From positions 25,838-89,837 of IMG/VR virus record IMGVR_UViG_3300013099_000002: a stretch of DNA of 64,000 bases. One strand, given 5' to 3'. The notes beneath the pieces are model-generated. The model made no database searches. It saw only the letters and a list, made by a program, of their open reading frames with translations, and was not told the DNA's origin. Source of the stretch: a virus. A program made the position numbers and the translations under genes. Below, piece after piece: positions 10,713 to 41,125 of this stretch (position 1 is its first letter; each line of letters starts with the position of its first letter).

Positions 10713-11390
10713 TCAATTGCAATGGGACTCACCGCAACTTAAACAAGTTTGGCACCCATCCATAAGGATAACAGCCTTAACGCTACACTTTGGGCATACA
10801 GTGGACTGTGGGGGGTATTCTGCTGTGTTATTATCGTCTGGGTTAGCTTTTTTGTACTCTTCACGCTTCTGAGCAATAAATTCTTCCGTGGCTTTATCTT
10901 TTTGAACTTCTATAATCCCAATAGCAATTAAATGTTTTTCAAGTATATGCCCAACTTCAGCAATTATAGAGGGCATAAATACCCCCCCTTTTTTGAAGTA
11001 ACCACCGGCAGGGTCAAATACGCTTTTTAGTTCATCTGCTAAAAAGACAACATCGCCACCTTTTCTAAATACTGCAGATATTACTCTGGTCAAAGCAAAT
11101 ACCCATTGTGCGCTCTCAGGGTCTTTACAGTTGATAAAAATTTCATACGGGTACAGATTACCGTTTATTTCTTTATCGTTCAAAGTAACGTAATAAGCGA
11201 AGTCTTTAACAGGATGTTTGAACTTGTATGTTCGTCCGTTTAGAATCTCATCCCGTTCTATTTCTTCATGCATCCCTGTTTGTTCACAAATCAACCCTTC
11301 TACTTCTTCAGGTTCATCTGTTAATACTTTAAAGCCAACAATTTTCTTGTCAATAACTGTAGGTGGTGGTTTCTTCTCTTCTTCAGCCAT
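10713..11390 (-). CDS. class II ribonucleotide reductase small/C-terminal subunit (NrdJb/TSCPD-like)
   Basis: YVTLND, PYEIFIN.K, ALTRVISAVFRKGGD, ELKSVFDP.GG, terminal CPKC...DGC.TCL.CG.S.C; start reassigned to MAEEEK (GGAG RBS). Confidence 0.85.
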   Translation of the reverse strand: MAEEEKKPPPTVIDKKIVGFKVLTDEPEEVEGLICEQTGMHEEIERDEILNGRTYKFKHPVKDFAYYVTLNDKEINGNLYPYEIFINCKDPESAQWVFALTRVISAVFRKGGDVVFLADELKSVFDPAGGYFKKGGVFMPSIIAEVGHILEKHLIAIGIIEVQKDKATEEFIAQKREEYKKANPDDNNTAEYPPQSTVCPKCSVKAVILMDGCQTCLSCGESHCN

Positions 11391-12009
11391 TATTATCTCC
11401 GGTGCCGGTAGAAATAGTAATGTTCCCCCGTTCATTTAAAAAAGCAATAATGTTTCTTATGCATACCAGCTCAATATCATGCACTTCAATATTGAAAGTC
11501 AGTTCTGCATCTTTTGGAAATTCGTATGAAGAACTAATGCCTGTAAAATCTTTTAATTTCCCAGACCGTGCCTTTGCATAATTTCCTTTTGCATCCACGC
11601 TTTCACAATATTCTAAAGATGCATTCATGTGAATTTCTATGAATTGGTTTTCTTCCACCGAATCCCTAACCATAGCCCTATCAATAAGAATAGGTGAAAC
11701 CAAAGACACCACTGCAAACATACCAGCGTCTACCAATAATTTTGCCACCTCCCCCACACGCGCCACATTTTCTGACCGGTCTTTTAAAGAAAAACCTAAA
11801 TCAGAACAAATACCTTTTCTTAATTCATCACCATCAAGGTTACATGCACCGTAACCCCTCACACGAAGTTCATCCACAATCTTTGTAGCCAACATTGACT
11901 TACCAGAACCACATAATCCAGTAAGCCAAATAATAGCTGGTTTAGGCTGTGTAATACTCCCAATCTGTTTTTCGCCTTCCAACACTTCTCTCCAATCGTT
12001 CGGCTTCAT
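11383..12009 (-). CDS. cysC: adenylyl-sulfate (APS) kinase
   Basis: IWLTGLCGSGKS, LDGDELR.G...DLGFS..DR.EN, EVAKLL.DAG, SP, KG.Y.KAR.G....FTGI...YE.P. Confidence 0.9.
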   Translation of the reverse strand: MKPNDWREVLEGEKQIGSITQPKPAIIWLTGLCGSGKSMLATKIVDELRVRGYGACNLDGDELRKGICSDLGFSLKDRSENVARVGEVAKLLVDAGMFAVVSLVSPILIDRAMVRDSVEENQFIEIHMNASLEYCESVDAKGNYAKARSGKLKDFTGISSSYEFPKDAELTFNIEVHDIELVCIRNIIAFLNERGNITISTGTGDNNG

Positions 12010-12208
12010 CCAGTTTGCTTTTTTCTACATACCACAAAATAACAGTAAAAGTAGCACCGGCATAAAACCCCAAATAAATAAAACTAAGAACTATCGTTAT
12101 CATTTCAATAAGAAACCGGATAGCATTACCCACGCCTACAAACAAGGGGGCTATATGTTGTGTTCGCCCCCTCCTATCTACAAGGCCGGTTCTTCTATTA
12201 ACCTGCAT
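11942..12208 (-). CDS. small membrane protein with N-terminal RRxxxxDRR motif
   Basis: Hydrophobic stretch of about 40 aa; NRRTGLVDRR at N-terminus. Confidence 0.6.
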   Translation of the reverse strand: MQVNRRTGLVDRRGRTQHIAPLFVGVGNAIRFLIEMITIVLSFIYLGFYAGATFTVILWYVEKSKLDEAERLERSVGRRKTDWEYYTA

Positions 12209-12761
12209 CTTCCATTGCCTTTCGTTCAGCTTCGGTATCCCGATTCAAAGCATCTTCTGTATTGAATTTTTCTGGGTACCGCGCCAGCAATTTATTGATA
12301 TTTTTATCCATGCATTCCTCAATAGATACACCAGCATCACGAAGTAAAATAGCATCGTACCAAAAGCCGTCCCCAACTTCTTCGATAGTATTTTTTACAT
12401 CATAGTTTTGTTTGTCTGAAGAAACAAAGGCAAATACATTTTCCATCACTTCCCCAGCTTCGGTTAATTTACCTAGTGCCGCGTGAAGCAAATCAACTTC
12501 CCGTGAATCAAACTTTTGCAAAGCTTCAAGTTCATCCGGTTCTAAGGCCATGGTATCGGCATCAGATAAAATTACCGCGCCATCAACCATAGGCTTACCG
12601 TAGTAAATATTCTTTTTTAATGCATCTAATTGCTGGCAAACATCAATAGCTTGTTTAATCACATTACCTAAAGATTTTGCTGTGTCACTTGATAGCCCTA
12701 AACCATCAGGAAATTTTGATAAGGTGCGTTCCGAATCAACTAAATATTGTTCTGGTGTCAT
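12198..12761 (-). CDS. MazG-like nucleotide pyrophosphohydrolase
   Basis: LHAALG..TEAGEV, EEVGD..WY, NI.KL..RYP..F. Confidence 0.85.
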   Translation of the reverse strand: MTPEQYLVDSERTLSKFPDGLGLSSDTAKSLGNVIKQAIDVCQQLDALKKNIYYGKPMVDGAVILSDADTMALEPDELEALQKFDSREVDLLHAALGKLTEAGEVMENVFAFVSSDKQNYDVKNTIEEVGDGFWYDAILLRDAGVSIEECMDKNINKLLARYPEKFNTEDALNRDTEAERKAMEDAG

Positions 12762-12787
12762 ACGTTGTACTCCTAGTTAAGTTAAAA

Positions 12788-13135
12788 TTAAAACCGGTTT
12801 GATTCCATAGGCATATCTTTACAGCCCCCAGTATGTCTTACTTCCTTTACTACTTTTGGTTTTAGCAGTTTTAGACGTGGCTCATCGAACTGCTGTCTTT
12901 CTTTTGGCTTACCATGAGGGTCTAATCCAGACGGTAATACCCCGTAAGCGTTGCAATTAGTTAGCCATTGCATACGGTATTCTATTACACCTTTAAAGCC
13001 GGTAATGTCATCTTTGACCTCATCACCAAGATTAAATTTAAAATCTGTATCGGTATTCGCATCTTTAACTACTTGTAGTTCAGCTATATCAGTTTTTGCC
13101 TTATTACCGAAGATATTTTTTATTGATTCAAACAT
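12788..13135 (-). CDS. conserved phage protein
   Basis: F.LGD.VKD.ITGFKGVI......L..C..Y.V.P...FDE.RL pattern. Confidence 0.7.
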   Translation of the reverse strand: MFESIKNIFGNKAKTDIAELQVVKDANTDTDFKFNLGDEVKDDITGFKGVIEYRMQWLTNCNAYGVLPSGLDPHGKPKERQQFDEPRLKLLKPKVVKEVRHTGGCKDMPMESNRF

Positions 13136-13155
13136 TTTGCTTTGTCCATTGGTTT

Positions 13156-13187
13156 AAAAAAAATGGTGAGGTTTTTACACCCCACCG
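13156..13187 (-). terminator. intrinsic terminator
   Basis: GGTGGGGT/ACCTCACC stem followed by a T tract. Confidence 0.7.
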
Positions 13188-13205
13188 AGTTACCACAGCG
13201 CTTGG

Positions 13206-14066
13206 TTAATCCACTTCTGCAGTTAAGGAAACATCAGGCCATAATTCTTCAAATATTTCTAGTACCTCTTCCCATGAAGAGCCTTTCATTGTATCTTTTA
13301 ATGATTTAGGTTTAGGTGCCTTCTTAGGTTTGTTACCAGACAAATATGCCAAACAAATAGATTCCATTGCCACGTTAGCAAATTCCGTGTCAGCATCATT
13401 TTTAGCCTTATCCACGGCATCATTGATGACCTCTTTTTGGTCATCATGCACCTTAAAGGTTAAGGTTGATAATTTAGTTGATTCTTCCATTGCATCTGGA
13501 GCATCTTCATCATCCTCGTCATCAGAGGCAGTCGAACCTTTTTGTTGTTCTTTGATGTAGGCTTGTAATTGAATCACGGTTAGCTCGGAAGCAATTTCCA
13601 CCCATTCATCAACATTTTCTTCATTGATAATATCGCACAGTTCTTTCAGTTTAGACCAACCCAAACCTTCAACCTTTTCCCATGGAATATTAGCTTCAAC
13701 CAAGCCGTTATAAATCCCAACCATATACATTGCTTTACGATAACCAAGCCCATATTCTTCTTCAACAAAAGATTTGAAATTATCAAAACCCTCATCAGTG
13801 TACCAACCATTTGATTGAATAACCGATAGAACCCCACCCAACTGAAAATATGAAAAGTCAATATCTTGAGCCAATTTTGAAACCATGGCATAAGCTTTCA
13901 CCTTGGTTAAATTTTCAAGTTTGTGAGCGGTATCGACAATTAAATCAGATTTTGCTTTGGTAGCAGTTTTTGGTTTTACTGCTGTGGTAGTTTTTGGTTT
14001 CGCAGTTGTTGTTTTTTTACCTGCCGCAACTTTCGCAGCAGTTGTTGTTTTTTTAGCTTCAGCCAT
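13206..14066 (-). CDS. hypothetical protein with Lys/Thr/Ala-rich N-terminus
   Basis: Long ORF; start reassigned to MAEAKK (GGAG RBS). Confidence 0.8.
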   Translation of the reverse strand: MAEAKKTTTAAKVAAGKKTTTAKPKTTTAVKPKTATKAKSDLIVDTAHKLENLTKVKAYAMVSKLAQDIDFSYFQLGGVLSVIQSNGWYTDEGFDNFKSFVEEEYGLGYRKAMYMVGIYNGLVEANIPWEKVEGLGWSKLKELCDIINEENVDEWVEIASELTVIQLQAYIKEQQKGSTASDDEDDEDAPDAMEESTKLSTLTFKVHDDQKEVINDAVDKAKNDADTEFANVAMESICLAYLSGNKPKKAPKPKSLKDTMKGSSWEEVLEIFEELWPDVSLTAEVD

Positions 14067-14114
14067 TTTTGTATCTCCAATAATAAAATAAACCATCCAT
14101 GGTATAAAGTTTTC

Positions 14115-14243
14115 CTAGTACCCAGTAATTTCAAACACCCAACTGCCGTTTAATTTGTGGCAATTAAAAGCCGCCCCTTTTTCAGTTAAGGACATTGCAA
14201 TTTCAGTCATTTCCAATAAATCGTCAGTTGTGATAGTTTTCAT
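14115..14243 (-). CDS. small hypothetical protein (42 aa, not in ORF track)
   Basis: Hand translation MKTITTDDLLEMTEIAMSLTEKGAAFNCHKLNGSWVFEITGY after the conserved promoter and AACGGATT leader. Confidence 0.65.
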   Translation of the reverse strand: MKTITTDDLLEMTEIAMSLTEKGAAFNCHKLNGSWVFEITGY

Positions 14244-14275
14244 TTTTTTAATCCGTTTCGTTTAATGTGAGCTTC

Positions 14276-14303
14276 ATTATACGCATATAATTTTAATTGT
14301 CAA
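14276..14303 (-). promoter_or_regulatory. sigma70-type promoter
   Basis: TTGACA-16nt-TATAAT. Confidence 0.85.
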
Positions 14304-14315
14304 ATTTAATTTTAA

Positions 14316-14876
14316 TCATATTTCACTATTTGCAATCAATTGCAATTTTTCTATATCTTTAGGATGTTTCTTAGCCCACTCTGTTAAAGCGGTTGCATTA
14401 ACTTTAGGGACTTTTACATACCCCAATAAACCCAAACCAAATTGAGCTAAACAAAAAGCATCGACCTCATTATCAGTCCCTTCTAGGTGCCAACGCTTGT
14501 AAGTTTCCAACATCATAACATCTTTCTTTACATTACCTTTACCAGAAACGAACTTTTTTAATGAAGTTGGGGGTATATCTAAAATAAGCACTCGGTATAA
14601 ATGCAACGTGTATTTAATCACTGTACCCACTTCAACCAGCGTTACCAGTGTGTGCTTATTAGCGAACCCGTAGCCCTCAATTATGCAAACATCAGGCTCA
14701 TACTTATCCAGTAATTCATAAAGCCTGTCTGCGAATGCTTTTAATCGTGGCATCCCTTTTAGTGTTGGAAAGTTCCATTCCTGCTTATACAGTAAATTTA
14801 TTTTTTCTTCCCCGTGTTTCAATTCCAAGATAACCACGCCTGTTTTAGTTGAAGTATCCAACCCTAAAACAATCAT
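14316..14876 (-). CDS. RuvC-like Holliday junction resolvase
   Basis: VLGLDTS..TG, IIEGY, P...LKKFVSGKGN..K, DNEVDA. Confidence 0.88.
   Translation of the reverse strand: MIVLGLDTSTKTGVVILELKHGEEKINLLYKQEWNFPTLKGMPRLKAFADRLYELLDKYEPDVCIIEGYGFANKHTLVTLVEVGTVIKYTLHLYRVLILDIPPTSLKKFVSGKGNVKKDVMMLETYKRWHLEGTDNEVDAFCLAQFGLGLLGYVKVPKVNATALTEWAKKHPKDIEKLQLIANSEI
14331..14344. repeat. 14-bp near-palindrome (copy 4)
   Basis: TGCAATCAATTGCA exact, in RuvC C-terminal tail. Confidence 0.95.
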
Positions 14877-15343
14877 GTTAAGTACTTCCATTTAGTGATA
14901 TGTTCTGCTTCCACAAAATCACCCCCACCAATAATGGCATTAGTATAAAATCCAAATTCATGCTCATCATGGTTAAATACTCCAAGATAAACACAATCCC
15001 CATATTGAAATAGTACAGGTCTTTCTGAGTCCGGCAAATTAACCAGCCTACCTTCAACACTATCAACCAGTGCCCATTCAGATTGCTCAGTAATATACCC
15101 CTCTTCAAAAGATTCTGCTGGTGAAAAGGATTTATACCCACCCTCATAAACAACATAATACCCACCGGCTTCAGGTTTATGTTTATTTACATAATCCATG
15201 CTTAGTTGTATCGGTGTAAATCTGTCATCGGTGGCCTTAAAAAATACAGCATCACCTTCATGGAATATTTCTTTTATTTTCAAAGCCCACACTTTTTTAA
15301 TGCATTGGTACTTTGGTAGTTCGCACATTGAGCCATCAGTCAT
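14873..15343 (-). CDS. conserved phage protein (GYYVVY.GGY.SFSP domain)
   Basis: LPKY.C.K.V.ALKI ... GGYYVVYEGGYKSFSPAESFEEGY. Confidence 0.7.
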   Translation of the reverse strand: MTDGSMCELPKYQCIKKVWALKIKEIFHEGDAVFFKATDDRFTPIQLSMDYVNKHKPEAGGYYVVYEGGYKSFSPAESFEEGYITEQSEWALVDSVEGRLVNLPDSERPVLFQYGDCVYLGVFNHDEHEFGFYTNAIIGGGDFVEAEHITKWKYLT

Positions 15344-15354
15344 ATTAAGTCCTC

Positions 15355-16281
15355 TTATGTTTCTTTTTTATTCCACGTTATTTGAGCTGGGTATTTTCCA
15401 GAAAAACACTCAGATACAACTGGGCAGGTTTTTGCCCGTTTACAAAATGAAGTATTACATACACCATCAGGCATCTTGCCGTTACCCCGAAACTTTTTAA
15501 TCAGCTTCGCCTTCCGTGTAAATATTAAGGTAGTTGAATCATCCCTATGAACAGTGAATTCTTTGAAAGGTGAAAAGGCCGCATCTTTCAACCCCATCAG
15601 TTTTAATGATTCATCTTTACAACCAAACCCTTTACACACGTAAAGAATATTAGCCACCTCAGTATTTACCCTATCGTGAAGCTCTGTGGTGTCCTCAGCG
15701 ACTAAACGCATATAAAGGTTTGTCCTTATCCGATGTTCGGCTAAAGGGGCTACTAACGCTTTAAATGCATCCGAAGCCATGGTCTTAATTTCATAGATTC
15801 GATATTTAGGTTCTCCGGTAATAATCAAGGCATCAATGCCGCCTGATATTCCAGATATTTTTGATAAGGGTCTTGGTTCCTCATACTGCCAATTATGGTC
15901 AATACCAGATTTAGTAAAGCAATGGCCTTTTGTTGGTTTCCTACATAACTGCTTTATTTCACCACAATTTCTGCATACCCAATTACCCACCATAATATCT
16001 TCAAGATAAACCTCATTGATTCGTCTTTGTAAATCCTCCCCATGGTGGAATGTGGTTCTAAGTGAAGTCCCAATAAATTCATCCCTTCGTTTTTTGCCGG
16101 TAATATCTACTAAGCAATATTCCCTTGGGCAAAATTCCTTATCCCCTTTAGTCACATCAGAAGCGTGAATATTATGCATAGGTCTTGCTTCTTGAACACC
16201 TGCAATTTTTTCATGCAAAATCTTCTTTAAACTAAATGCATTTTTGTTTTTTAGTTTCTTAGTTATTTTTAATGGCATCAA
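15355..16281 (-). CDS. Cas4-like PD-(D/E)XK exonuclease
   Basis: HAS...CPR, G...H, GGID.L, YEIKT, C-terminal Cys cluster. Confidence 0.75.
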   Translation of the reverse strand: MMPLKITKKLKNKNAFSLKKILHEKIAGVQEARPMHNIHASDVTKGDKEFCPREYCLVDITGKKRRDEFIGTSLRTTFHHGEDLQRRINEVYLEDIMVGNWVCRNCGEIKQLCRKPTKGHCFTKSGIDHNWQYEEPRPLSKISGISGGIDALIITGEPKYRIYEIKTMASDAFKALVAPLAEHRIRTNLYMRLVAEDTTELHDRVNTEVANILYVCKGFGCKDESLKLMGLKDAAFSPFKEFTVHRDDSTTLIFTRKAKLIKKFRGNGKMPDGVCNTSFCKRAKTCPVVSECFSGKYPAQITWNKKET

Positions 16282-16294
16282 TCCTCCAACCGGC

Positions 16295-16546
16295 CTAATT
16301 GCCGTGATAGTTCCATATACTTTTCAACCTTGATTTTCTTTTCTTTTCTTCCATAATATCAAATAAATTTAAAAGACAAGGTATTGTTTCATCTTGTGTA
16401 AGCATTTTGCTAACCGCCATGGCTTCGGCAAATTCCTGTGCAATATCACCTACTTTAGTTCTTTTAGCCAAGGCTATCAATCTAACAAAAACACCGGTTT
16501 TTGAATCATAATGCAAATGTTTTTTTAGTTTATCTTGAGTAATCAT
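16295..16546 (-). pseudogene. truncated HNH endonuclease remnant or chimera
   Basis: N-terminus MITQDKLKKHLHYD.KTG.F...GDIA typical of HNH-AP2 endonucleases, but no HNH core follows. Confidence 0.55.
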
Positions 16547-16914
16547 AAATCCCCTATGTTTATATTTTCTATTAGTTGAGAAAAAACATCTTCAGGAACC
16601 ATTACCCATCGACCTCTTTTTAAGGAAGTGCCTTGAGAATCCACAAATTGAATAGATAAGGCAGGTGTTTTTCCAACTTCAAGAGCTTCTTGTGATACCT
16701 TAAGCAACCAATCCAAATCCAGTTTCATACTTCTATGAATAGTCGCTTTGTTTTCAATCTTGAATTCCTTTACAGTAAAATCTGCTTTTACCCCCATGTT
16801 GCCACTACCAGCATGAAGTTTACCCCCCATCCTTCTAGCGGCCTTAACTTCTGCTTTTCGCCCGTGGTCGTTTTTCTTCCCTGTATGTTTTTTCATCCAC
16901 GGGTTATCACTCAC
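16543..16914 (-). CDS. PD-(D/E)XK resolvase-like nuclease
   Basis: G...E...A...GG....GSG...K.D......IENK. Confidence 0.7.
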   Translation of the reverse strand: MSDNPWMKKHTGKKNDHGRKAEVKAARRMGGKLHAGSGNMGVKADFTVKEFKIENKATIHRSMKLDLDWLLKVSQEALEVGKTPALSIQFVDSQGTSLKRGRWVMVPEDVFSQLIENINIGDL

Positions 16915-17096
16915 GCCAACCCCTCCTTTGTAGCAAACCATAATGATACTTCTATGGTAGCTTCTTCTCCTTCACCATATTCTTCAGCATCAGTAATCTG
17001 GGATTTAGGTATCCAATGTTCTTCCCCATCATCTACCAAAAAAGCCTTTGGTGTTTCTCGTATAACAACAACACTCATTTCTATAGTTTCGCTCAT
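16911..17096 (-). CDS. small conserved phage protein
   Basis: RETPKAFLV...E.WIPKSQI...W.A...GL. Confidence 0.75.
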   Translation of the reverse strand: MSETIEMSVVVIRETPKAFLVDDGEEHWIPKSQITDAEEYGEGEEATIEVSLWFATKEGLA

Positions 17097-17098
17097 AA

Positions 17099-18154: not shown

Positions 18155-18168
18155 TACCTATCCCCCAT

Positions 18169-18182
18169 TGCAATTGATTGCA
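18169..18182. repeat. 14-bp near-palindrome (copy 5)
   Basis: TGCAATTGATTGCA exact, just upstream of recA RBS. Confidence 0.95.
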
Positions 18183-18183
18183 C

Positions 18184-18660
18184 TTATTCTTTGTGAGTTG
18201 ATATTTCTGATTGTAGCTCTTCAATCTTGTCATCCACCCACGTTTTTGCAAATTCGTAAGTATCTTCAATTTCCTCATGTGAGCAAGGTACATGAAGCGA
18301 TACTTGCGCCTTTACATTTTCATAATTGCCGATATTAACGGTAAGCCCCAAACTTATACCCACATTTACTGTAGGCCCTACATAGTTTGAGGCATTGGCT
18401 AATTTAATCTGAATATTCTTCGTGGTGCCATCTGGATACTCAAGACTTACATTCCCAGTTGGTTCCTTCATGTTGAATATTTCGCCATCAGAAACTTCAT
18501 CACCATCAACCAACAATTTAGTTTCCTTAGATTGTTTAGCAATATCTTTGGTTTCTGGTTTCTTTGCAACGGTTTTTTTCGCTACAGGTTTTTGTTTTGC
18601 TTTTTTCGGTGCTTCTTCTTCTTCCGTGGCGGTACTTTTCTTTTTTATTTTTACTGGCAT
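18184..18660 (-). CDS. hypothetical protein
   Basis: V.ISLG.T.NIGNYEN.K..V motif; MPVKIKKK N-terminus. Confidence 0.75.
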   Translation of the reverse strand: MPVKIKKKSTATEEEEAPKKAKQKPVAKKTVAKKPETKDIAKQSKETKLLVDGDEVSDGEIFNMKEPTGNVSLEYPDGTTKNIQIKLANASNYVGPTVNVGISLGLTVNIGNYENVKAQVSLHVPCSHEEIEDTYEFAKTWVDDKIEELQSEISTHKE

Positions 18661-19146: not shown

Positions 19147-19180
19147 TGTTTATCTCCTTAACCTTATTTCAGTTTTGACA

Positions 19181-19209
19181 ATTATAATTTATTTAAGGCT
19201 AGAAGTCAA
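19181..19209 (-). promoter_or_regulatory. sigma70-type promoter
   Basis: TTGACT-17nt-TATAAT. Confidence 0.75.
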
Positions 19210-20549: not shown

Positions 20550-20640
20550 TTCTATCTCCGTAAAATGATTAGGGAACCCTCAATACCTGCAAAGGTGTGA
20601 TGAGCTAATACCAAGAATCCCCAAATCAAAACCTTAAAGC

Positions 20641-25804: not shown

Positions 25805-26791
25805 TTATTCATCATCCTCTTCCCAGTCAAACTTCTTACCATAGTTCTTGTTAGTTGCAATGGTTTCTTCCGTCACCGAAAAGCTTGGAATTGCCATCTT
25901 AAATTTAAGTAAGTATGGAATCATCGGAGTAACAGGTGAATTGAAGGCTGCAAAGCCGTTCTCGCAGTGCTGAGTGAATTCATACCATTTTCCGATAAGG
26001 ATACCAAGGGTCTTGTATTTATCCTCTTCTATCGTCACCATAAGCGTATCCAGCATTTTCTTTTCAACACCTATTACAGTCGGCACCGTTTTTAACTTAT
26101 CCTTGTAGCATACGGTCATGCATTTTCTCCAATAATCAGAAACCCTTTTCGGGTTATATTCTGTTTCGGAAAATTCTTCAATCAGTTGGTCAATAGTATA
26201 ATCTTCGGATGAATCAACAAAGTCTTTATATAATTCATTAACCGTATAATTGCTTTTAGGTTTTACTATTGTTTTAGTTTCTTTTATTTTTCCTTTATTT
26301 AGTTTATTTCCCGAATCAGCTTTAATTTTCGGAAATGTCTTTAATTGATTCTCCGAAGGTGAATCCATGTTTATCTTATCTGTTTTCTTATTTGTAGTTA
26401 TAACTGGTATAGGTTGTTGCGTTTCAACTTTTGCATTGTTGCTTTTGCCACTATCCATTGTTGCATTTCCAACAATGGTGAATTCCGTGTAATAGGTATC
26501 TGAAAACGAGTACCAAAGTGTCCGGTCATAAGTGTGTTTGTTGTAGTTTCCGGTTATCAATACCTCTTGTTTTTTTAAGCTGGCTAGTATCCTCTTAACC
26601 TGTTCATACGTCCAAAAGTGATACAGTACCGCATAGTATTTTTTTGAGTTATATGTCCAAGCTTTCCCTTCATGTATATTCTTATTATCTGCTTTATTTT
26701 TTATTATCCAGAATTTAAAGTTTTCCAACATGATAGCTTCATTAACCCCGAATCTTGCCGCAAGGTCTGTATTAAACAATAAGCAATCCAT
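25805..26791 (-). CDS. replication initiator / replisome organiser
   Basis: F...LA..FGVNEAI.L....FW...N......G..W.YNS...F.....L..L.....L..GNYN...DRT.WY winged-helix N-terminus. Confidence 0.75.
   Translation of the reverse strand: MDCLLFNTDLAARFGVNEAIMLENFKFWIIKNKADNKNIHEGKAWTYNSKKYYAVLYHFWTYEQVKRILASLKKQEVLITGNYNKHTYDRTLWYSFSDTYYTEFTIVGNATMDSGKSNNAKVETQQPIPVITTNKKTDKINMDSPSENQLKTFPKIKADSGNKLNKGKIKETKTIVKPKSNYTVNELYKDFVDSSEDYTIDQLIEEFSETEYNPKRVSDYWRKCMTVCYKDKLKTVPTVIGVEKKMLDTLMVTIEEDKYKTLGILIGKWYEFTQHCENGFAAFNSPVTPMIPYLLKFKMAIPSFSVTEETIATNKNYGKKFDWEEDDE
26414..26478. repeat. candidate origin iterons
   Basis: TTGTTGC at 26414, 26436 and 26458 (22-bp period); perfect 9-bp inverted repeat 26455-26478. 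Confidence 0.5.
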
Positions 26792-30747: not shown

Positions 30748-30748
30748 A

Positions 30749-33322: not shown

Positions 33323-34755
33323 TAGACTATTGATAACCTTGAGCTAGAAGATACAACCGCACTTGTGGCCTCAACAGTAAGTTCCATTGTTTGCGCTCCG
33401 GCAGAACCTTGGATTCTTACATTGATAACAATGCCAACAATATTGCCGTTCATTTTCAAACGAGCATACTTAGTGAAATCAGTTGCAGTTGCATCACTTG
33501 ATGGAGTGCCATCATGCGTTGCATCAATCTCATAAGTAATTACTTTCGTACCTTGTTGAGCATGTACTAACCAACGAACAGCCTTCACATCATCAACTAA
33601 TACTGAATCAACAACCTGTAAAGTCGTAATACCAGAAATAGCTACAGGGTGGTTAGTTTGGTCTGCAAAAGCATCCAATTTACCAATCGCAACTTCAAGA
33701 TTATCATTATCTGCAACTACATTGTTTGTAGTGTAATCCGGTAATTCAGCACCGGTTGCAGATTTACCCATGAACAGATTTTGGTCTGTATCATCGTTAG
33801 ATATTAAACCAATAGCATCGGCATTGGCTTTAATCTGAGTATCTAAATCAGTTAAATCTTCTGATACTGAACCATTACTATCAATGTAGTTTGTGGTACT
33901 GAAAGCAACATAATCACCATTACCATCAATAACCGCACCCATGGCAGTTTCAATCGCATCAACTTCAGTTTGAACATTGCCAATTGAAGTAGCATTGGTA
34001 CCAATATCAGTATCATTGCTACCAACAGCCGCATCCAATTTACCTAAAGCAACTTCCAAAGTATCGTTATTAGCGATATGGTTTGTTGAAGTGTATCCTG
34101 GGAGTTCAGAACCAGCCGCATCTTTTCCAATAAAGGCGCGTAAAAATCCAAGCTCATCTAGGCTTGTTTGATTAGAACGCACCCATGAATCTGAAGTAGC
34201 ATTATAATTAAATTGATTACCGGCAAAAGAACCATCATCAATAATTATTGCATCATTATTAGTTTCAGCATTAACATCTTCAACTAAGGTTGCACCGGCT
34301 CCAGGGGTTCCAGTAACTATAAATACGTTTTTAGCTTCACCAGTGATTGCCGTAAGTAAAATACGGTCATTTTCTGATAGTGCAACACCGTCAATGGTAC
34401 CTGTATTAACAGCAACTTCAGCCGCAGCCAAGTTTGCATAAACCGTGTCATCTTTTACAAGTGCAGGTTCTCTCCAAGACTCAGTTCCACTTGATGCAGT
34501 AATATCATCAGCATCAGCTAAACGTACCCACTTATCCGTACCTGAACCAGCAGTCTTTTTGCGGTACTCAAAACCACTTGTTGAATCCAATGCTTTAGAG
34601 CCAACAGGTGCATTATTGGATAATGTTTGTTCTGCGGCTGGTAAGCCCCCGTCTCCAGGTAATCCTGTGGTTACAAATTGCTCATATACTGGAGAACCAG
34701 TTGTTTCGTTTTCGATTGCAAAGCCTAAACTCGCACCGAATAATTGTTCTGACAT
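33322..34755 (-). CDS. fibre/whisker-like structural protein with internal repeats
   Basis: Two copies of F.GK.A.G.ELP.YT..N..A.ND.LEVA.GKLDA plus coiled-coil segments. Confidence 0.65.
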   Translation of the reverse strand: MSEQLFGASLGFAIENETTGSPVYEQFVTTGLPGDGGLPAAEQTLSNNAPVGSKALDSTSGFEYRKKTAGSGTDKWVRLADADDITASSGTESWREPALVKDDTVYANLAAAEVAVNTGTIDGVALSENDRILLTAITGEAKNVFIVTGTPGAGATLVEDVNAETNNDAIIIDDGSFAGNQFNYNATSDSWVRSNQTSLDELGFLRAFIGKDAAGSELPGYTSTNHIANNDTLEVALGKLDAAVGSNDTDIGTNATSIGNVQTEVDAIETAMGAVIDGNGDYVAFSTTNYIDSNGSVSEDLTDLDTQIKANADAIGLISNDDTDQNLFMGKSATGAELPDYTTNNVVADNDNLEVAIGKLDAFADQTNHPVAISGITTLQVVDSVLVDDVKAVRWLVHAQQGTKVITYEIDATHDGTPSSDATATDFTKYARLKMNGNIVGIVINVRIQGSAGAQTMELTVEATSAVVSSSSRLSIV

Positions 34756-34764
34756 ATCAGACTC

Positions 34765-34959
34765 CTATCTAATTAGTTTTCGTAAATTAATTAATTCCGT
34801 GTCGTGTCTATGACAGCACGAATTCAAATATTCAACTTCCCATTCTGATTCTGTTTTTTCAGAGTCAAATGCGAACTTCCCAGAAGCCACTTCAATTAAC
34901 TTGCCATTGTTCATTTTAATAAAAGCCGCTAACCCTAATTTTCTTGTTTCAATTCTCAT
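34765..34959 (-). CDS. small hypothetical protein
   Basis: 64 aa, LGLAAFI motif. Confidence 0.65.
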   Translation of the reverse strand: MRIETRKLGLAAFIKMNNGKLIEVASGKFAFDSEKTESEWEVEYLNSCCHRHDTELINLRKLIR

Positions 34960-35417
34960 ATCACTCTACTCTCTATTTTGTGGTACTTAACTTTGCCTGC
35001 CAAGTAAGCACTTGAGGCTAATTTTTCTGAATTATAACAACCCAAACTAATACGTTTACCATGCAACACAATTCTAGCTTCAAAGGAACCATTATTAACC
35101 ATAGAATAACCTTTTACATTACTACGGTTAAATTGTTGCTCACTATGAGTAAGTAAACGTAAATTAGAAATATCATTACTATTTCTAATTCTATTAAAAT
35201 GGTCTACTTCAAACCCTTCCGGTATAGCACCATAATGATATACCCAAATAAGATTATGCGCCTTGTGCTGGATACCATCAACCCGTACACAAACATAGCC
35301 ATAAGAATTAACACCAGTTACGGCATCGCCTAATCTAGCTCTACCTTTATCAACTAGCCAGAATAAAGTACCATCTTTGTATGTAAATAAAGATTTTATT
35401 TCCTCAACAGTAATCAT
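34956..35417 (-). CDS. HNH-AP2 homing endonuclease
   Basis: Y..G.L.W, GY, AH.LIW...YG.IP....VDH.N..R..N.I.NLR, AP2-like tail. Confidence 0.88.
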   Translation of the reverse strand: MITVEEIKSLFTYKDGTLFWLVDKGRARLGDAVTGVNSYGYVCVRVDGIQHKAHNLIWVYHYGAIPEGFEVDHFNRIRNSNDISNLRLLTHSEQQFNRSNVKGYSMVNNGSFEARIVLHGKRISLGCYNSEKLASSAYLAGKVKYHKIESRVI

Positions 35418-35959
35418 ATTACTGTACTCAATCTCAACACTTTGAGGTCTAAAACCTCAGAGTGATTATTAGTTAATTCCAATTGGAAAAAAAGCCCACC
35501 CGAAATAAATACATCTATTGAGTATGGAACTAAATCACCAGTTATTCCGTAATGAGTATGTTTTGCTACAGTACCATTATGGATTGCTACAACTTCACTA
35601 ATTCTTCGTTTATTGCCCACTGCATCAAGAGCCGTAATTATCCACTTTGAAGATGGATTTAAGGCCACTGACAGACTATCAACAATAACACTTGCACCAA
35701 CACCAACAGAAGCATTTATTTGCTGTGCCGCTGTCCCATCGTTACCTTTAGGCCCTATTGCACCTTGAGTACAGGATTCTAAAATTTCAGTAACATTGGC
35801 TACAGATAATATTTCAGTCTCTTCCACCGATTCAATAATTTCAGTAACATCTGCCACATCATCAATGTAGGTAATGTTATCAACAGATAATAATTCTGTA
35901 ACTTGGTCTTGTGTAACCAACTCACAAACTGTTTCTGTTTCTGTAATTATAGAAGTCAT
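35414..35959 (-). CDS. putative virion structural protein
   Basis: Short Gly-X-Y stretch; C-terminal domain resembles that of 33322..34755. Confidence 0.6.
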   Translation of the reverse strand: MTSIITETETVCELVTQDQVTELLSVDNITYIDDVADVTEIIESVEETEILSVANVTEILESCTQGAIGPKGNDGTAAQQINASVGVGASVIVDSLSVALNPSSKWIITALDAVGNKRRISEVVAIHNGTVAKHTHYGITGDLVPYSIDVFISGGLFFQLELTNNHSEVLDLKVLRLSTVI

Positions 35960-36321
35960 GGTCTTGTTACTTCAGGGTCAACAGTGAAACCACCCTTAAC
36001 AATACGAATAACATTTTCTGGGTCTGCGGTTTCTACAAGTTCTAAATCGTAAACACCCGATACCCAAACCATTGCTTCAGTATCCGTTGCCCCAACATAT
36101 AAATCTATACGTCCAGTTTCCGAACCAGCTTCAATAGTTATTCTACCGTTAGCAGTTGTGAATTCCTCCAATACTGTATCAGAATCAATAGATTCACGAA
36201 TCTGCATTCTAGCTTCATAACCGGCTAAAGAAATCGCCACCTTATCAGCGTCACGCCTAAAAAACGTGTGCCTAAACGTAGCCCCTTGTTCTATCAATAA
36301 GTCTTTTTCGACTGCCGCCAT
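35956..36321 (-). CDS. fibre-attachment beta-sandwich protein (LtfC/BppU-like)
   Basis: IEQGATF, L.GY.ARMQIR, GVYDLEL, G...V.PEVT. Confidence 0.65.
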   Translation of the reverse strand: MAAVEKDLLIEQGATFRHTFFRRDADKVAISLAGYEARMQIRESIDSDTVLEEFTTANGRITIEAGSETGRIDLYVGATDTEAMVWVSGVYDLELVETADPENVIRIVKGGFTVDPEVTRP

Positions 36322-36338
36322 AATTCACCTCCACTCGT

Positions 36339-36352
36339 TGCAATCAATTGCA
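36339..36352. repeat. 14-bp near-palindrome (copy 9)
   Basis: TGCAATCAATTGCA exact, intergenic. Confidence 0.95.
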
Positions 36353-36356
36353 AAAA

Positions 36357-36674
36357 TTAAGTTTGAGCAAATGCTTTAATATCTTGGGCACCAGTTCGGA
36401 CTAACTTAACGAAATTCCAACGTGGGTCAAATACATGAAACTGGTCAGGGTTTGTTGCCCCATCAAGATTCACAATTTCCTGAAAAGTTGAAGTTGGGTC
36501 AACTGCTACTTGAATTGAGATAGTGGTTCCAGCCGCCATGTTTTCAACCGTAATAATCCTTGGTACTCTGGATATTTTTGATTCATTGGCATTGGCACCT
36601 TGAATTGAGTTAGCTGGGTCGTAAATTAAACTAACTGGGAAGTGCGGTGCAACCGCTACTGTTATGTTTGGCAT
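36357..36674 (-). CDS. hypothetical structural protein
   Basis: 105-aa ORF, GAGG RBS. Confidence 0.65.
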   Translation of the reverse strand: MPNITVAVAPHFPVSLIYDPANSIQGANANESKISRVPRIITVENMAAGTTISIQVAVDPTSTFQEIVNLDGATNPDQFHVFDPRWNFVKLVRTGAQDIKAFAQT

Positions 36675-36722
36675 CGTTCGTAGCCTCTTAATTTATTTAA
36701 TATAAAAATCATACAACCTCTA

Positions 36723-36959
36723 CTACACAAAGTATACAGGTATTGTTTCTTCACTTGATACTTTGCCTAATAAATTGTTGCCATCTAATACAACCTTATC
36801 ACCAACCAAAAATTGAACATCAGTTTGGTTCTCAATAACCTTTAATCCAGATGGAGAAGATACAGATACAACTACCCCATCTACTTTAGCCACCACACCT
36901 GTAACTTCACCCTTACCTTTAAAAAGTAATTTTCTTAATTGAACTAAACCTTGACTCAT
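36723..36959 (-). CDS. small tail-tip protein
   Basis: OB-like G.V......V.V pattern; coupled. Confidence 0.55.
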   Translation of the reverse strand: MSQGLVQLRKLLFKGKGEVTGVVAKVDGVVVSVSSPSGLKVIENQTDVQFLVGDKVVLDGNNLLGKVSSEETIPVYFV

Positions 36960-37261
36960 GTTGGTCTCCGTAAAGTAAGAGTAGTAAGTAATGTGCCGTT
37001 TCGGGCTACATGGTTAATGCCTATAATTTTGCCAACCCAAGAAACACCTTGTAAAGAATCATGTACTTCAGTTAATTGGCCTAATAATACCCCTGACCTA
37101 AATACGGTGGTCATGGTTACTTGTTGTAAGTTTTCGCCATTCTCATCAATTTCTGCTTGGCCTCTTGATAGTCCAACAGGCACAGAATTTATCAAAGGGT
37201 CGATAATATCCACCCCTTGTTTATCCCCTGACCCTCGTTGAACAATCATAGAAAATGACAT
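36956..37261 (-). CDS. tail-tip protein
   Basis: I.DPL....V...RG.AEID; coupled. Confidence 0.6.
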   Translation of the reverse strand: MSFSMIVQRGSGDKQGVDIIDPLINSVPVGLSRGQAEIDENGENLQQVTMTTVFRSGVLLGQLTEVHDSLQGVSWVGKIIGINHVARNGTLLTTLTLRRPT

Positions 37262-37761
37262 TAGATAATCCCGATTAAAACTACTAATATTCTAAAATCA
37301 GCTTCACCGTTTATTGTAGTTGGTGCTGTTAATTTATAAATAGTGTAATTAGTGGTGTATGTTATTTTAGCAACCGCTGTACCTGAAATAGCCGCACGAA
37401 CCTTACCCCCACCCAAATAAGCAACCGCACCTAAATCAGTACCAAACCATTGAATTGATAACCCCCCTGCCGGTGGAAATTGTAATGCAGCTTCATCAAT
37501 ATTAACGAAGTCTACAAATTCCTCTATTGTTCTGGTGCCGGAACCTGTGGATACTAAAGTACCTGCGGAAACTAAACTTTGAATACTAGCTAAACCTTCT
37601 TGGTAAGCTAAAATAAATACCGAGTCACCGCCTATAAAAGAAGTGGAAGTATTTAATCCACCCTCGGACTCTTCCCTTGAATCTACCTCAGCTACTAACT
37701 GAGCGTTGCTTTCAGAATCCAGTCCTTTGAATTCCACAACTATTGAAGCTGAAATAGCCAT
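37261..37761 (-). CDS. tail-tip protein
   Basis: Resembles 45385..46290 and C-terminus of 37761..40301 (E...F.....L.FP motif). Confidence 0.6.
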   Translation of the reverse strand: MAISASIVVEFKGLDSESNAQLVAEVDSREESEGGLNTSTSFIGGDSVFILAYQEGLASIQSLVSAGTLVSTGSGTRTIEEFVDFVNIDEAALQFPPAGGLSIQWFGTDLGAVAYLGGGKVRAAISGTAVAKITYTTNYTIYKLTAPTTINGEADFRILVVLIGII

Positions 37762-40301
37762 TATGCTGTCTCCATTAAAAATTGAATTTGTCTATCACTT
37801 ATCGCGTATTGGGCCTCGTAATTTATGCTTTTAGTTTCATAAACTATTTCAAGTAACCCAAATCTATCTACCAAGCTTGTTGATTTTACCTGCTTACCGG
37901 AAAATGTGATTCCACCTAAATTAGTATCAAGCCAAGATATTGATACCACGGACTCTATAGGATACTTAACCGAACCACTACCATCAAATATCTCTATTAT
38001 CTCAGTTTCGGTTCTGGTTATCTCACCTAGTTTAGATAACAACACCCCTACAGGCCCCGTATGAGTGATATTAATATCTCTGAATGGGCTTGGGTACGCC
38101 TTTAAAATTCCGGCTGTAGAATCATCTTCCTTAACTATAAATTCTATAGTATCGGCATCCGTTGAATTAACACTTTGGTCTCGTATAGCAATCTTATTAA
38201 GTTCTTTGGAGAAACCCTGACCTTCAACAACCGAAATATTGTCATCTGAATCAGTATAAGTTTGGTCTATTATAGAAATACCGTAATCAGGTACTTTTAT
38301 CTTATGTCTAGGTCTTACCAACAAACTACCATCTGGTTTTGTTTCCACAACACCGCCTGCTGATTTTGCAATCAATTGCACAAGTTCTATTGGAGTAATA
38401 TCACTTACCCCTAAAGCAAAGGCTGGGATAGTCCAATTAACTAATTGCCAATCAATCACCTCACCACCTAAGAACTCTTCTGCGGCATCTTTAGCTAAAA
38501 CCGGTGTATCCCATAATTTAGATATGCTTTCGCCTCGTGGTGAAGCTAATAAGGCCGTTGGTGATAATCCTGACACTGATAAACCAACCTCCGAAGGATT
38601 AGACCTATTTAAGCCTTTAGAATCCACAATTAACTCGAATAATTCCCCGAATAAATTAACAGTGAATGCATCCCCGTTAGTAAATTTTTGGTAGTCCTCA
38701 ATTTTTGCCAAGATCACAACACCTAACCATGCATAACCATCTTCATCTTGAGAAAGACTGGCATCAATAATTTCTATTAATTCGCCATTCAATTCGACAA
38801 AAGGAACATCAGTAATATTAACAATAGTTGTTGCCCCTACATTGTAAATATTCTTATGCTGATTAATTACGAAATCACGTTGTTTTAATTCCCACCCTGC
38901 TTCATTTTGCTGGGCTAATAAAGTCGTCATGCTCCAATTAGATTCATTGGAACTAACAATAAAACTTCTGGAAGAATAAGTTTGTTTATTGCTGTTAGAA
39001 ACCTTTAATAAATCCCCTGCTTCATGTTGGTTGCGAACACTAGCTAATAATTTAACTGCATAAGGTAATTCTTGTTCCGCAACAACCTTAACTTTAATTG
39101 AATAGCCATTAGCGTTGTCATTGGTAACTCTAAGTAAACTAGAAGCCTCATGCTGGGTTGTTACTTCACCTAGTAATTTAATGTCATAAGAAAATTCGTT
39201 ACTTGAATTTTCCACAATCCGAAGTGAATAAGTATCTTCAAAAGAATTGGAAACTTTTAATAAGCTTGGTGCTTCATGTTGAGCTACAACAGGGTCATGT
39301 AAATTAATGTCATAAGTAATCTCTGAAGCATTAACTGTTCTGCCTCTAACAGCGTAATTAATCTCAGTTATATTTTGAACTTTTAATAAGCTTGGTGCTT
39401 CATGTTGATTACTAACCGTAACCAATGCCTTATTATCATAGTCATAAGTAAACTGATTAGGTATTCTAGTATTTAAGGAATAATCCACCGTATGCCCAGC
39501 AGAGACAGTAAATAAGCTTTGTGCATTAAATTGGTAAGAAACTTTAACGCCATGTACCGCTTCAAACTGCTTATGAATTCTAAAAGATGAAGGTGCTACA
39601 TGTTGGTTAAAGGTATACTTGGTTAAATAATAAACCGCATCATTGGAGCTTCTAACCCTTGTTTCACCAAAAACATAACCGGCTTCGTGTCCTTCTTTCG
39701 GAAAGATACCTGAATCAAATACAGACTTATGTTGTGCCCCAACCTGTATAGAAAATGGGGTTAAATGAGAATTGGAAACACGTAAACTTTGTACCGCTTC
39801 ATGCTGGACAGAAACTTTAATACCATAAGCACTTGAATTCTGACTATCAACATTATCTTCAAAGATATGAAAGTTTGTTGAGTGTTGTTCAACACTATAA
39901 AATCTAGCAGTGTAAATAAGTGAATGTTGATTTTTTACAAATAATAAATCTTGAAAAGAAGCTTCATGTTGATTTTGTTGTCTAGGTTTATCTTCAAAAC
40001 CTGCTTCATGTTGAGCATGTATTTTCCCATCCCCAACAATGGTACCAACAACCTCAGTAATCTGTGAATTTATTAAACCGAAATTAACAACAGAGCTATT
40101 AACAGTACCGGATACGCCTTCAACAGTAACGGTGGTTTCACCGGTTCCTTCAATTATTGAATTAGCACCAACTAACCCAAAATTCACTGTTGAGCTGTTT
40201 ACCGTACCGGATATAATAACATCGGGCACTACAATGCCTTCAGCTTCCGTTACCGCACCGCCTACAAGTATCTCATTAATAGCACTGTCATTAATTGCCA
40301 T
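37761..40301 (-). CDS. large tail protein with QHEA repeats and hub-like C-terminus
   Basis: More than 10 QH(E/S)A-type repeats; C-terminal TPIE....IA...GG.V...PDG.L.V. Confidence 0.65.
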   Translation of the reverse strand: MAINDSAINEILVGGAVTEAEGIVVPDVIISGTVNSSTVNFGLVGANSIIEGTGETTVTVEGVSGTVNSSVVNFGLINSQITEVVGTIVGDGKIHAQHEAGFEDKPRQQNQHEASFQDLLFVKNQHSLIYTARFYSVEQHSTNFHIFEDNVDSQNSSAYGIKVSVQHEAVQSLRVSNSHLTPFSIQVGAQHKSVFDSGIFPKEGHEAGYVFGETRVRSSNDAVYYLTKYTFNQHVAPSSFRIHKQFEAVHGVKVSYQFNAQSLFTVSAGHTVDYSLNTRIPNQFTYDYDNKALVTVSNQHEAPSLLKVQNITEINYAVRGRTVNASEITYDINLHDPVVAQHEAPSLLKVSNSFEDTYSLRIVENSSNEFSYDIKLLGEVTTQHEASSLLRVTNDNANGYSIKVKVVAEQELPYAVKLLASVRNQHEAGDLLKVSNSNKQTYSSRSFIVSSNESNWSMTTLLAQQNEAGWELKQRDFVINQHKNIYNVGATTIVNITDVPFVELNGELIEIIDASLSQDEDGYAWLGVVILAKIEDYQKFTNGDAFTVNLFGELFELIVDSKGLNRSNPSEVGLSVSGLSPTALLASPRGESISKLWDTPVLAKDAAEEFLGGEVIDWQLVNWTIPAFALGVSDITPIELVQLIAKSAGGVVETKPDGSLLVRPRHKIKVPDYGISIIDQTYTDSDDNISVVEGQGFSKELNKIAIRDQSVNSTDADTIEFIVKEDDSTAGILKAYPSPFRDINITHTGPVGVLLSKLGEITRTETEIIEIFDGSGSVKYPIESVVSISWLDTNLGGITFSGKQVKSTSLVDRFGLLEIVYETKSINYEAQYAISDRQIQFLMETA
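38367..38380. repeat. 14-bp near-palindrome (copy 10)
   Basis: TGCAATCAATTGCA exact, intragenic (VQLIA). Confidence 0.95.
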
Positions 40302-40303
40302 GG

Positions 40304-41125
40304 TTAGCCTTCTGTTTGCAACAACTCAGGGTAAAAAGTTTCGTAATACCACCTATTAGCTTTAACAATATCATTGGCTATCTCTGCGCCAAGAATCTCA
40401 TTCCAATCTTCAGGTAGTGGTCTTATTGCCCCCTCACCACATTGGTGGTCTCCGAAAGGTAAATGGATTGCATCATGCTCATGTATAGTTTGCTCAATGT
40501 TTATGAAATCATGTTCATAGTTTTCAAGCCCCAAAAACTTATACATTTTTTCAGTCCACAGCTTAGGGTTTCGACAATAATCTTCCATTCTTACAAATAG
40601 AATTTTATTAGCATACCCCCGCGAAACTGATTCCCTGATATTATTTAAGGAAGTACCTAATGGGTTATTGTTAAACCAGTTAGTTAATCTAACCCCAATA
40701 TTGTTTTGTTCAACACTGGAAGCCATCATGTAAACCGGTCTTTTACGAATCAGTTTCTCCATACTGGATGCAACACCTCTAAGGTCACGAATTGGAGCAA
40801 TAATCTTCCAACCTTCAGGATATAACTTATCCATGAATTCACCCTTACCAAGCCAATAGCGGCCTTTATCTATTGCAATGTCATGGTTACGGTACCATCC
40901 ATCAATTGCGCCCCTACAAGCCCCGTAGATACGTTCTTGTTGCTCTTCAGTATCAAGAGCCGCCTTCATATCAGGGCTGTTAGTATAAACAGCCGTAATT
41001 TGATGTATCAACTCAGCCAAAGGCGAAGTTGGTGAAACATGAAGGTTTGGGTTCTGGTCTAAAACATTACTAATTTTAGTCGAACCGGCTCTTGGTAATC
41101 CACCCAAAAAGAAAACTTTACTCAT
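40304..41125 (-). CDS. sulfotransferase (Sulfotransfer_3-like)
   Basis: 5'-PSB loop GLPRAGST, IDK.R.W, 3'-PB motif IRD......S, VR.ED....P. Confidence 0.85.
   Translation of the reverse strand: MSKVFFLGGLPRAGSTKISNVLDQNPNLHVSPTSPLAELIHQITAVYTNSPDMKAALDTEEQQERIYGACRGAIDGWYRNHDIAIDKGRYWLGKGEFMDKLYPEGWKIIAPIRDLRGVASSMEKLIRKRPVYMMASSVEQNNIGVRLTNWFNNNPLGTSLNNIRESVSRGYANKILFVRMEDYCRNPKLWTEKMYKFLGLENYEHDFINIEQTIHEHDAIHLPFGDHQCGEGAIRPLPEDWNEILGAEIANDIVKANRWYYETFYPELLQTEG

Follow-up and report, generated by a model that had tools for sequence, protein, structure and literature searches.

The stretch of DNA analysed here (hereafter "the window") comprises 64,000 nucleotides, positions 25,838 to 89,837, of the IMG/VR virus record IMGVR_UViG_3300013099_000002. 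It forms the final 64 kb of that 89,837-bp record, which carries direct terminal repeats and has a completeness estimate of 100% (CheckV). The phage is siphovirus-like, its DNA is present in sediment metagenomes, and nearly all of the genes in the window are situated on the minus strand. Two of them are our main subject: one encodes an adenosine 5'-phosphosulfate (APS) kinase, CysC, and the other a sulfotransferase of the type that uses 3'-phosphoadenosine 5'-phosphosulfate (PAPS), located in the tail module beside a fibre gene (Table 1). A first-pass annotation had proposed that both enzymes belong to one phage-encoded sulfation route, and had also considered a third gene, described as PAPS-reductase-like; the three open reading frames (ORFs) concerned are all present on the minus strand. 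Broadly, the observations of that annotation were confirmed and its interpretation is partly supported. Besides the families of both enzymes, the conservation of their motifs, the fold of the sulfotransferase and the purifying selection on the two genes, we describe two linkages which are new with respect to it and were read from viral sequences: the conserved association of the sulfotransferase with the fibre in one module, and the recurrence of CysC-sulfotransferase cassettes in viruses.

The comparisons rely on a single close relative, IMGVR_UViG_3300013101_000007 (79.7 kb); a search of viral contigs with one protein, the large terminase (TerL), returned only one further relative, a 17-kb fragment. 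The terminases of siphoviruses of 80-100 kb from Stenotrophomonas, Vibrio, Rhizobium and Rhodobacter share 50-54% identity with this one. Among the 50,697 records of a phage collection, the sulfotransferase matches 10 and CysC matches 5, and megablast of both gene regions against that collection gave no match.

Table 1. Positions of the genes and other features of the window referred to in the text.
Feature	Coordinates	Strand	Remarks
PAPS-type sulfotransferase, 273 aa, viral Sulfotransfer_3 subfamily	40304..41125	-	Pfam, motifs, fold, dN/dS 0.095
APS kinase (CysC), 208 aa	11383..12009	-	Family cut-offs, conserved residues, dN/dS 0.23
Trimeric-adhesin-like (YadA-head repeat) tail fibre, 1286 aa	41468..45328	-	
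96-aa ORF	41163..41453	-	Between fibre and sulfotransferase
Tail protein, 846 aa	37761..40301	-	phrog_6079
166-aa ORF	37261..37761	-	Matches phrog_24905 (unknown function); conserved in two relatives
Tape-measure protein	48725..52807	-	Anchors the region as distal tail module
PAPS_reduct + DUF3440 protein (IbrA-like PP-loop ATPase)	5692..6909	-	Not in the sulfation route
ParB-like protein	7575..8180	-	Two genes upstream, in transcription, of 5692..6909
Large terminase	1940..3832		
TSCPD-domain protein, 240 aa	10713..11435	-	Overlaps the 3' end of CysC by 53 nt; domain stands alone
HNH endonuclease	10100..10681	-	
HNH endonuclease	34956..35417	-	
Hairpin + T7	41157..41171	-	5-bp, GC-poor

The sulfotransferase scores 43.4 bits against PF13469 (cut-off 27) and 26.3 bits against PF00685 (cut-off 22). 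In an alignment of 20 members of its family, the 5'-phosphosulfate-binding (5'-PSB) loop (P11 R12 x G14 S15 T16) and the 3'-phosphate-binding (3'-PB) segment (R113 D114 x R116 ... S121) are invariant, and so are K87, E123, E181, E216, D218 and H227; these scores and this alignment bear out the earlier description of a sulfotransferase with both PAPS-binding motifs. The PAPS loop begins at residue 8, leaving no signal peptide or membrane anchor, so that a cytoplasmic enzyme is predicted. It is 83% identical to its counterpart in the relative, with a ratio of nonsynonymous to synonymous substitution rates (dN/dS) of 0.095. Judged from the sequences available, the family is almost purely viral: the ESM Atlas clusters nearest to the enzyme are 97-100% viral (Uroviricota), and a family profile detected 73 loci in viral contigs versus 7 in 185,579 species genomes, all 7 in metagenome-assembled genomes.

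An AlphaFold2 model of the sulfotransferase was obtained with good confidence (pLDDT 88.9, pTM 0.88), and the 50 matches listed in its structural comparison are all sulfotransferases (Z 11.5-19.5). The tyrosylprotein sulfotransferases TPST1/2 come first (Z 19.5, root-mean-square deviation of 3.6 A over ~243 of the 273 residues), followed by the CurM / olefin-synthase (polyketide) sulfotransferase domains (Z 16), the glycan sulfotransferases 3-OST and NST of heparan sulfate (Z ~14.5) and the cytosolic SULTs (Z ~12); the TPST class thus leads the next structural class by 3.5 Z. The equivalents of TPST2 Arg78 and Lys158 are conserved in the phage enzyme (R12 and K87).

In the order of transcription, the tape-measure gene is followed by four tail genes, the 1286-aa fibre, the 96-aa ORF, the sulfotransferase, the 846-aa protein and the 166-aa ORF, and the same order is found in the relative. 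Residues ~700-1140 of the fibre are head repeats of the YadA/CbpF-type trimeric adhesins. The sulfotransferase gene has a ribosome-binding site of its own, and only 2 nt separate its stop codon from the ATG of the 846-aa gene (TAA-CC-ATG), a spacing which predicts that both are translationally coupled. Pfam is silent on most tail genes of the module, and the 846-aa protein has no match among PDB sequences. The position given by the first-pass annotation, between a tail fibre with its chaperone and the next tail gene, stood as regards the fibre upstream, from which the 96-aa ORF separates the sulfotransferase, and the tail gene downstream, all of this beyond the tape measure; the "chaperone" label, examined for the 166-aa ORF, found no support, and this protein matches a family to which no function is assigned (Table 1). 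Identity to the relative amounts to 37% for the fibre (dN/dS 0.41), 40% for the 96-aa ORF and 58% for the 846-aa protein, versus the 83% of the sulfotransferase, which on these comparisons is a conserved resident of a fast-evolving receptor-binding module. As for transcription signals, promoter-like and terminator-like matches in the region are at or below chance. The weak hairpin listed in Table 1, which overlaps the stop of the 96-aa ORF and stands just upstream of the sulfotransferase ribosome-binding site, is not above background either.

The association of sulfotransferase and fibre extends well beyond the window. The 77 viral loci with a family member were grouped into 18 lineages at 70% identity, and the 935 proteins encoded within 6 kb of the sulfotransferase were clustered into families. 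The family of the 1286-aa fibre is near the sulfotransferase in 11 of the 18 lineages, and any other neighbour family in 3 at most; in nine lineages the nearest neighbour upstream, on the same strand, is the fibre gene, at a distance of -10 to 345 bp, and the ~90-aa ORF occupies the wider of these intervals. As a control, 71 viral loci (1.2 Mb) chosen without regard to the sulfotransferase were examined, and only one of them has a member of the fibre family. The linked lineages include 40-45 kb phages which are unrelated to the window phage in their other tail genes, and the fibres of six lineages have in common a C-terminal domain of ~130 residues. These comparisons strengthen the putative link of the sulfotransferase to a YadA-like tail fibre, with the caveat that two of the nine upstream neighbours are short proteins. 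Further arrangements were seen on individual contigs. On two viral contigs of 136 kb and 95 kb (L020:356-9949 and L021), a tandem array of five paralogous ORFs of ~600-635 aa, several of them of the YadA-like fibre family, stands directly upstream of a sulfotransferase homologue, an arrangement resembling a multigene fibre cassette with a single sulfotransferase at its end. On a 385-kb jumbo-virus contig (L161:13374-18144), the sulfotransferase ends an operon with a collagen-repeat protein (762 aa) and a Laminin_G_3 lectin-like protein (829 aa), and this operon is abutted by a convergent CysC-adenylyltransferase operon.

The 1286-aa fibre, as the conserved upstream partner of the sulfotransferase, is the leading candidate acceptor of the sulfate, although several observations weigh against this reading. 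The TPST catalytic base, Glu99 (GEETR), aligns with T33 of the phage enzyme (VSPTSP), a near-invariant Thr in the family, so that tyrosine-sulfation chemistry is not to be assumed; from sequence and model, the enzyme is TPST-like in architecture and not a demonstrable TPST. No invariant Tyr was found in the C-terminal domain shared by the fibres of six lineages, or in the 96-aa ORF. Moreover, the similarity of the fibres between lineages rests largely on their YadA-type repeats. Tail-fibre regions are also known to host receptor-modifying morons, so adjacency is no proof that the fibre is the substrate. A small peptide was considered as well: RaxST, the bacterial TPST analogue, sulfates RaxX, and the 96-aa ORF could have been a peptide of this sort. 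This candidate was rejected as unsupported, since the ORF, found at the same position in four lineages, is poorly conserved and contains no conserved acidic-Tyr site.

The main rival acceptor is a host envelope glycan. The sulfotransferase would then modify a lipopolysaccharide O-unit or a capsule or exopolysaccharide precursor at the cytoplasmic face, with CysC supplying PAPS, and the changed receptor of the neighbouring fibre would result in superinfection exclusion or would keep the progeny from sticking to debris. Cytoplasmic bacterial sulfotransferases acting on glycolipid or glycan precursors are established (NodH, LpsS, Stf0), and receptor-modifying genes often adjoin fibre genes. The enzyme has a weak NoeE-like match in NCBIfam, glycan sulfotransferases still align with its model at Z ~14.5, and one distant cyanophage homologue adjoins a glycosyltransferase and a sugar epimerase. 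Nonetheless, a Pfam scan, confined for these families to 20 neighbouring proteins, recognised no glycosyltransferase or sugar-pathway gene. The sulfotransferase gene is translationally coupled in a late structural operon, a timing that would come late for remodelling a receptor, the protein-modifying TPST class is closest in fold by 3.5-5 Z units, and the sulfotransferase family is almost entirely viral. We consider the glycan reading unlikely, and the fibre or another tail protein the most likely acceptor.

The other enzyme of the proposed route, CysC, matches PF01583 with an E-value of 4.6e-52 and 176.5 bits (cut-off 21.1) over domain positions 2-150 of 152, and scores 205.5 bits against NF003013 (cut-off 163) and 183.7 bits against TIGR00455 (cut-off 138.7). 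It had been described as a full-length CysC among nucleotide-metabolism genes, and both statements hold: the three scores cover the whole domain, and the neighbours encode MazG-like, TSCPD-domain, HNH, dCMP deaminase, RuvC-like and exonuclease proteins. The best solved relative is Arabidopsis APK1 (E 3e-40). In an alignment of 19 sequences the window enzyme retains 40 of 40 invariant columns, among them the P-loop (G31-x4-G36 K37 S38) and L58 D59 G60 D61. The active site was mapped by motif spacing onto the residue roles described for the CysC of M. tuberculosis (PMC4373884). By this mapping, the enzyme keeps the Mg-water and catalytic Asp residues (D59 and D61; M. tuberculosis Asp478/480), the Arg pair on the APS phosphosulfate (R64 and R78; Arg483/497), the Phe sandwich on the APS adenine (F73 and F155; Phe492/576), the transition-state Lys (K141; Lys562) and the lid Cys (C135; Cys556). 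The lid Arg that stacks on the ATP adenine (Arg559) is lost, its place being taken by V138. With a dN/dS of 0.23 against the relative, a value to be taken as approximate since dS is ~1, the gene appears to be still under purifying selection.

The motif deviations noticed at first pass (VDAKGNY and ENVAR) are thus real, and the first of them can be sharpened to the replacement of the lid Arg on the ATP adenine by V138. This raises the possibility of a repurposed or weakly active enzyme, with a changed phosphate donor or substrate, which may not make PAPS from ATP. In the published description, the lid Arg counts among the conserved contacts between enzyme and substrate, and nucleotide binding requires it. 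It is present in 118 of the 120 best homologues, the exceptions being the window phage and its relative. Among other viral CysCs it is kept by 68 of 70. Loss of the first Arg of ENxRR, A83 here, is confined to the window phage and its relative, and in the CysC tree both stand on a branch of 2.54 substitutions per site. The lost lid Arg and the long branch count against an ordinary APS kinase, in that activity or phosphate-donor specificity may have changed. On the other hand, the APS-contacting residues, the catalytic Asp, the transition-state Lys and the lid Cys are all intact, the scores stay above the equivalog cut-off, the gene shows a dN/dS of 0.23, and two other viral CysCs carry Leu at the lid position, so that a hydrophobic residue may be tolerated there. 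Repurposing therefore seems improbable to us. Our reading is that of an APS-specific kinase under selection with an altered nucleotide-donor lid, presumably still catalytically active despite V138.

The TSCPD-domain protein whose gene overlaps CysC is 158 aa long in the relative (Table 1 gives the window form), and PHROGs labels it "ribonucleotide reductase"; the TSCPD domain occurs at the C-terminus of class II ribonucleotide reductases. It had been a candidate nucleotidyltransferase, which its domain assignment rejects. At the positions syntenic to the two HNH endonuclease genes, the 79.7-kb relative has no equivalent of either. Both look like mobile insertions, and one of them is the second gene downstream of CysC.

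Whether CysC and the sulfotransferase belong together is best judged from their distribution among viruses. Sulfotransferase co-occurrence was examined in 78 CysC-bearing viral records (CysC is encoded on 214 IMG/VR contigs), and 18 of them (23%) contain a Sulfotransfer_3 gene above the cut-off. Both genes are separated by 215-261 bp in five of these records, by 0.9-2.8 kb in another four, and by 4-7.5 kb in four more. Eight of the CysC-linked sulfotransferases score 210-282 bits on the hidden Markov model of the window enzyme's family and are 31-34% identical to the window enzyme, so that eight other IMG/VR contigs, belonging to two lineages, have a family member and a full CysC separated by 215 bp to 2.8 kb. 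In the CysC tree the sulfotransferase-linked CysCs form a clade of their own, outside which the window CysC falls, which suggests a separate acquisition and a pairing that arose at least twice. In the window lineage, the one close relative has retained both genes where they stand in the window, and purifying selection acts on the two. This recurrent pairing is the strongest support for a functional route, as far as gene linkage can tell. The first-pass annotation had advised checking the co-occurrence of both genes in related phages, and the result is divided: they are kept together in the relative and are linked on eight other contigs, and most sulfotransferase phages have no CysC. Its central proposal, one PAPS-dependent route served by CysC and the sulfotransferase, thereby gains support from the linkage elsewhere, and it may extend to the window phage, where the two enzymes would act in one pathway.

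The distribution also provides the points that speak against such coupling. In the window, the two genes are 28 kb apart and in different modules. When the search is started from the sulfotransferase, no full CysC is found among the 72 other sulfotransferase-bearing records, five of which are complete jumbo genomes, while one is 40.6 kb long and 91% complete and another, of 45 kb, has terminal repeats; in three contigs of a third lineage, besides the two mentioned above, an APS-kinase-like half fused to a nucleotidyltransferase lies ~600 bp from the sulfotransferase. As most relatives of the sulfotransferase do without a phage CysC, this enzyme would be an optional booster and not an obligate partner. 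These facts are also compatible with two independent genes, CysC being an auxiliary metabolic gene that boosts the assimilatory sulfate reduction of the host for cysteine, and the sulfotransferase drawing on host PAPS. Viral cysC has been read in this manner in freshwater and hadal viromes (PMC10914622, PMC9529941), and the location of the window CysC among nucleotide-metabolism genes agrees with it. However, the phage has no true CysH that would draw PAPS toward sulfite, the 23% of CysC-bearing viral records with a Sulfotransfer_3 gene, which is frequently a neighbour of CysC and a member of the window enzyme's family, compares with 10 of 50,697 phage records matched by the sulfotransferase at all, and the pairing appears to have arisen separately in the window lineage. 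Independence is accordingly regarded as quite unlikely, and a shared route is preferred.

Some of the viral cassettes have further components. In one of them, a protein of 349 aa joins CysC to a small archaeal-NMNAT-like adenylyltransferase (L117:9932-10981); in two others, an adenylyltransferase of 152-153 aa comes immediately after CysC (L161:10536-10994, L168:10537-10998); and L082:7984-8739 encodes a truncated APS-kinase half fused to the same NMNAT-like domain. The scores of all four matches (L117, L161, L168 and L082) are below the family cut-offs. The NMNAT-like enzyme could be a minimal APS-former, completing a route from sulfate to product, or belong to an unrelated NAD metabolism. 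A different fusion, of 520 aa, joins N-terminal tetratricopeptide (TPR) repeats to Sulfotransfer_3 at 261 bp from CysC (L132:8370-9932, viral contig G117).

As regards the supply of APS, the absence of an ATP sulfurylase, noted before for the window, extends to the whole 89,837-bp genome, in which PF01747 has no match. A hidden ATP sulfurylase or adenylyltransferase was rejected on this ground and because PF01467 (CTP_transf_like adenylyltransferase) has no match in the phage genome or in the relative. Lacking both, the phage must take its APS from the host. The suggestion that PAPS might also feed a PAPS reductase encoded by the phage did not hold. The protein in question, the only PF01507 protein in the genome, combines a canonical ATP PP-loop (SFSGGKDS) with DUF3440, and reaches 19.2 bits against the CysH equivalog NF002537 (cut-off 154); the CysD cut-off is likewise far off, and no CysH catalytic Cys motif of the ECG[LI]H type occurs in its translation. 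It is an IbrA-like PP-loop ATPase, with a ParB-like partner close by, and this pair (5692..8180) is 70-73% conserved in the relative. It is probably a DNA-directed PP-loop system rather than a part of sulfur metabolism.

Taken together, these data are consistent with the following sequence of events. CysC would be expressed with the DNA-metabolism genes and would convert host-made APS into PAPS, so raising or securing the donor pool. The sulfotransferase, a predicted soluble cytoplasmic enzyme made from the late tail operon, would move sulfate from PAPS, before assembly, to a target tied to the YadA-like fibre; this target is most likely the fibre itself or a different protein of the distal tail. 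The fixed negative charges so added could alter the adhesion of the fibre to the host surface or to environmental polyanions. We hold the chances of this proposal, in which CysC tops up PAPS from host APS and the sulfotransferase modifies the fibre or another distal tail protein before assembly, to be about even. A broader and more tentative one, which we would not yet favour, is that tailed phages sulfate their own virions, a virus-specific TPST-like enzyme encoded just after a YadA-like fibre gene modifying that fibre or an adjoining tail protein after translation, that several lineages separately added CysC and some also a small adenylyltransferase, and that many "assimilatory" viral cysC genes in fact serve donor supply.

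If the fibre is indeed the acceptor, its sulfation would represent a new post-translational modification of phage receptor-binding proteins, with a bearing on host range, adsorption and the behaviour of particles in polyanion-rich sediments; no papers on phage tail-module sulfotransferases or virion sulfation were found in the searched literature. Irrespective of what is sulfated, the recurrence of CysC-sulfotransferase cassettes calls into question the way in which virome studies routinely annotate viral cysC, namely as "assimilatory sulfate reduction". The system is small, consisting of two soluble enzymes and one candidate substrate, and can be tested by heterologous expression without isolating the phage.

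Several known systems resemble parts of the one described here. TPST1/2 (PDB 5WRI, 3AP1) offer the closest solved fold and the best PDB sequence match (E 5e-6), and share with the phage enzyme the PRxG[ST]T 5'-PSB loop, the RDxR...S 3'-PB motif and the equivalents of Arg78 and Lys158; the phage enzyme differs in having Thr33 for Glu99, in lacking a membrane anchor and in its low identity (14-20%), and the phage system in that the search of neighbouring proteins turned up no conserved acidic-Tyr site. The "sulfotransferase" genes of cyanophages (S-SCSM1, S-SKS1, S-SRM01) belong to the same Pfam family, with 25-30% identity, but they are found among replication genes or in a glycosyltransferase/epimerase island, with neither an adjoining fibre gene nor a CysC; such contexts are heterogeneous and uninformative for the window subfamily. 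The protein at 5692..6909 shares with IbrA/IbrB pairs the PAPS_reduct+DUF3440 architecture and the ParB-like neighbour, and differs from CysH-type PAPS reductases in not being a consumer of the PAPS made here.

With respect to the bacterial and plant APS kinases (PF01583, TIGR00455; 3UIE, 4BZP), the window CysC is ~50% identical to bacterial CysC and has the P-loop, LDGD, the APS-binding Arg pair, the Phe sandwich, the lid Lys and the lid Cys in common with them; it differs by Val for the lid Arg and Ala for the first ENxRR Arg, and in being phage-borne, long-branched and without a partner ATP sulfurylase. Finally, the published viral cysC genes (PMC10914622, PMC9529941) are likewise phage APS kinases without a full assimilation pathway. 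Those reports make no mention of sulfotransferases, whereas in the window phage, as on at least eight further viral contigs, CysC is paired with one viral sulfotransferase family.

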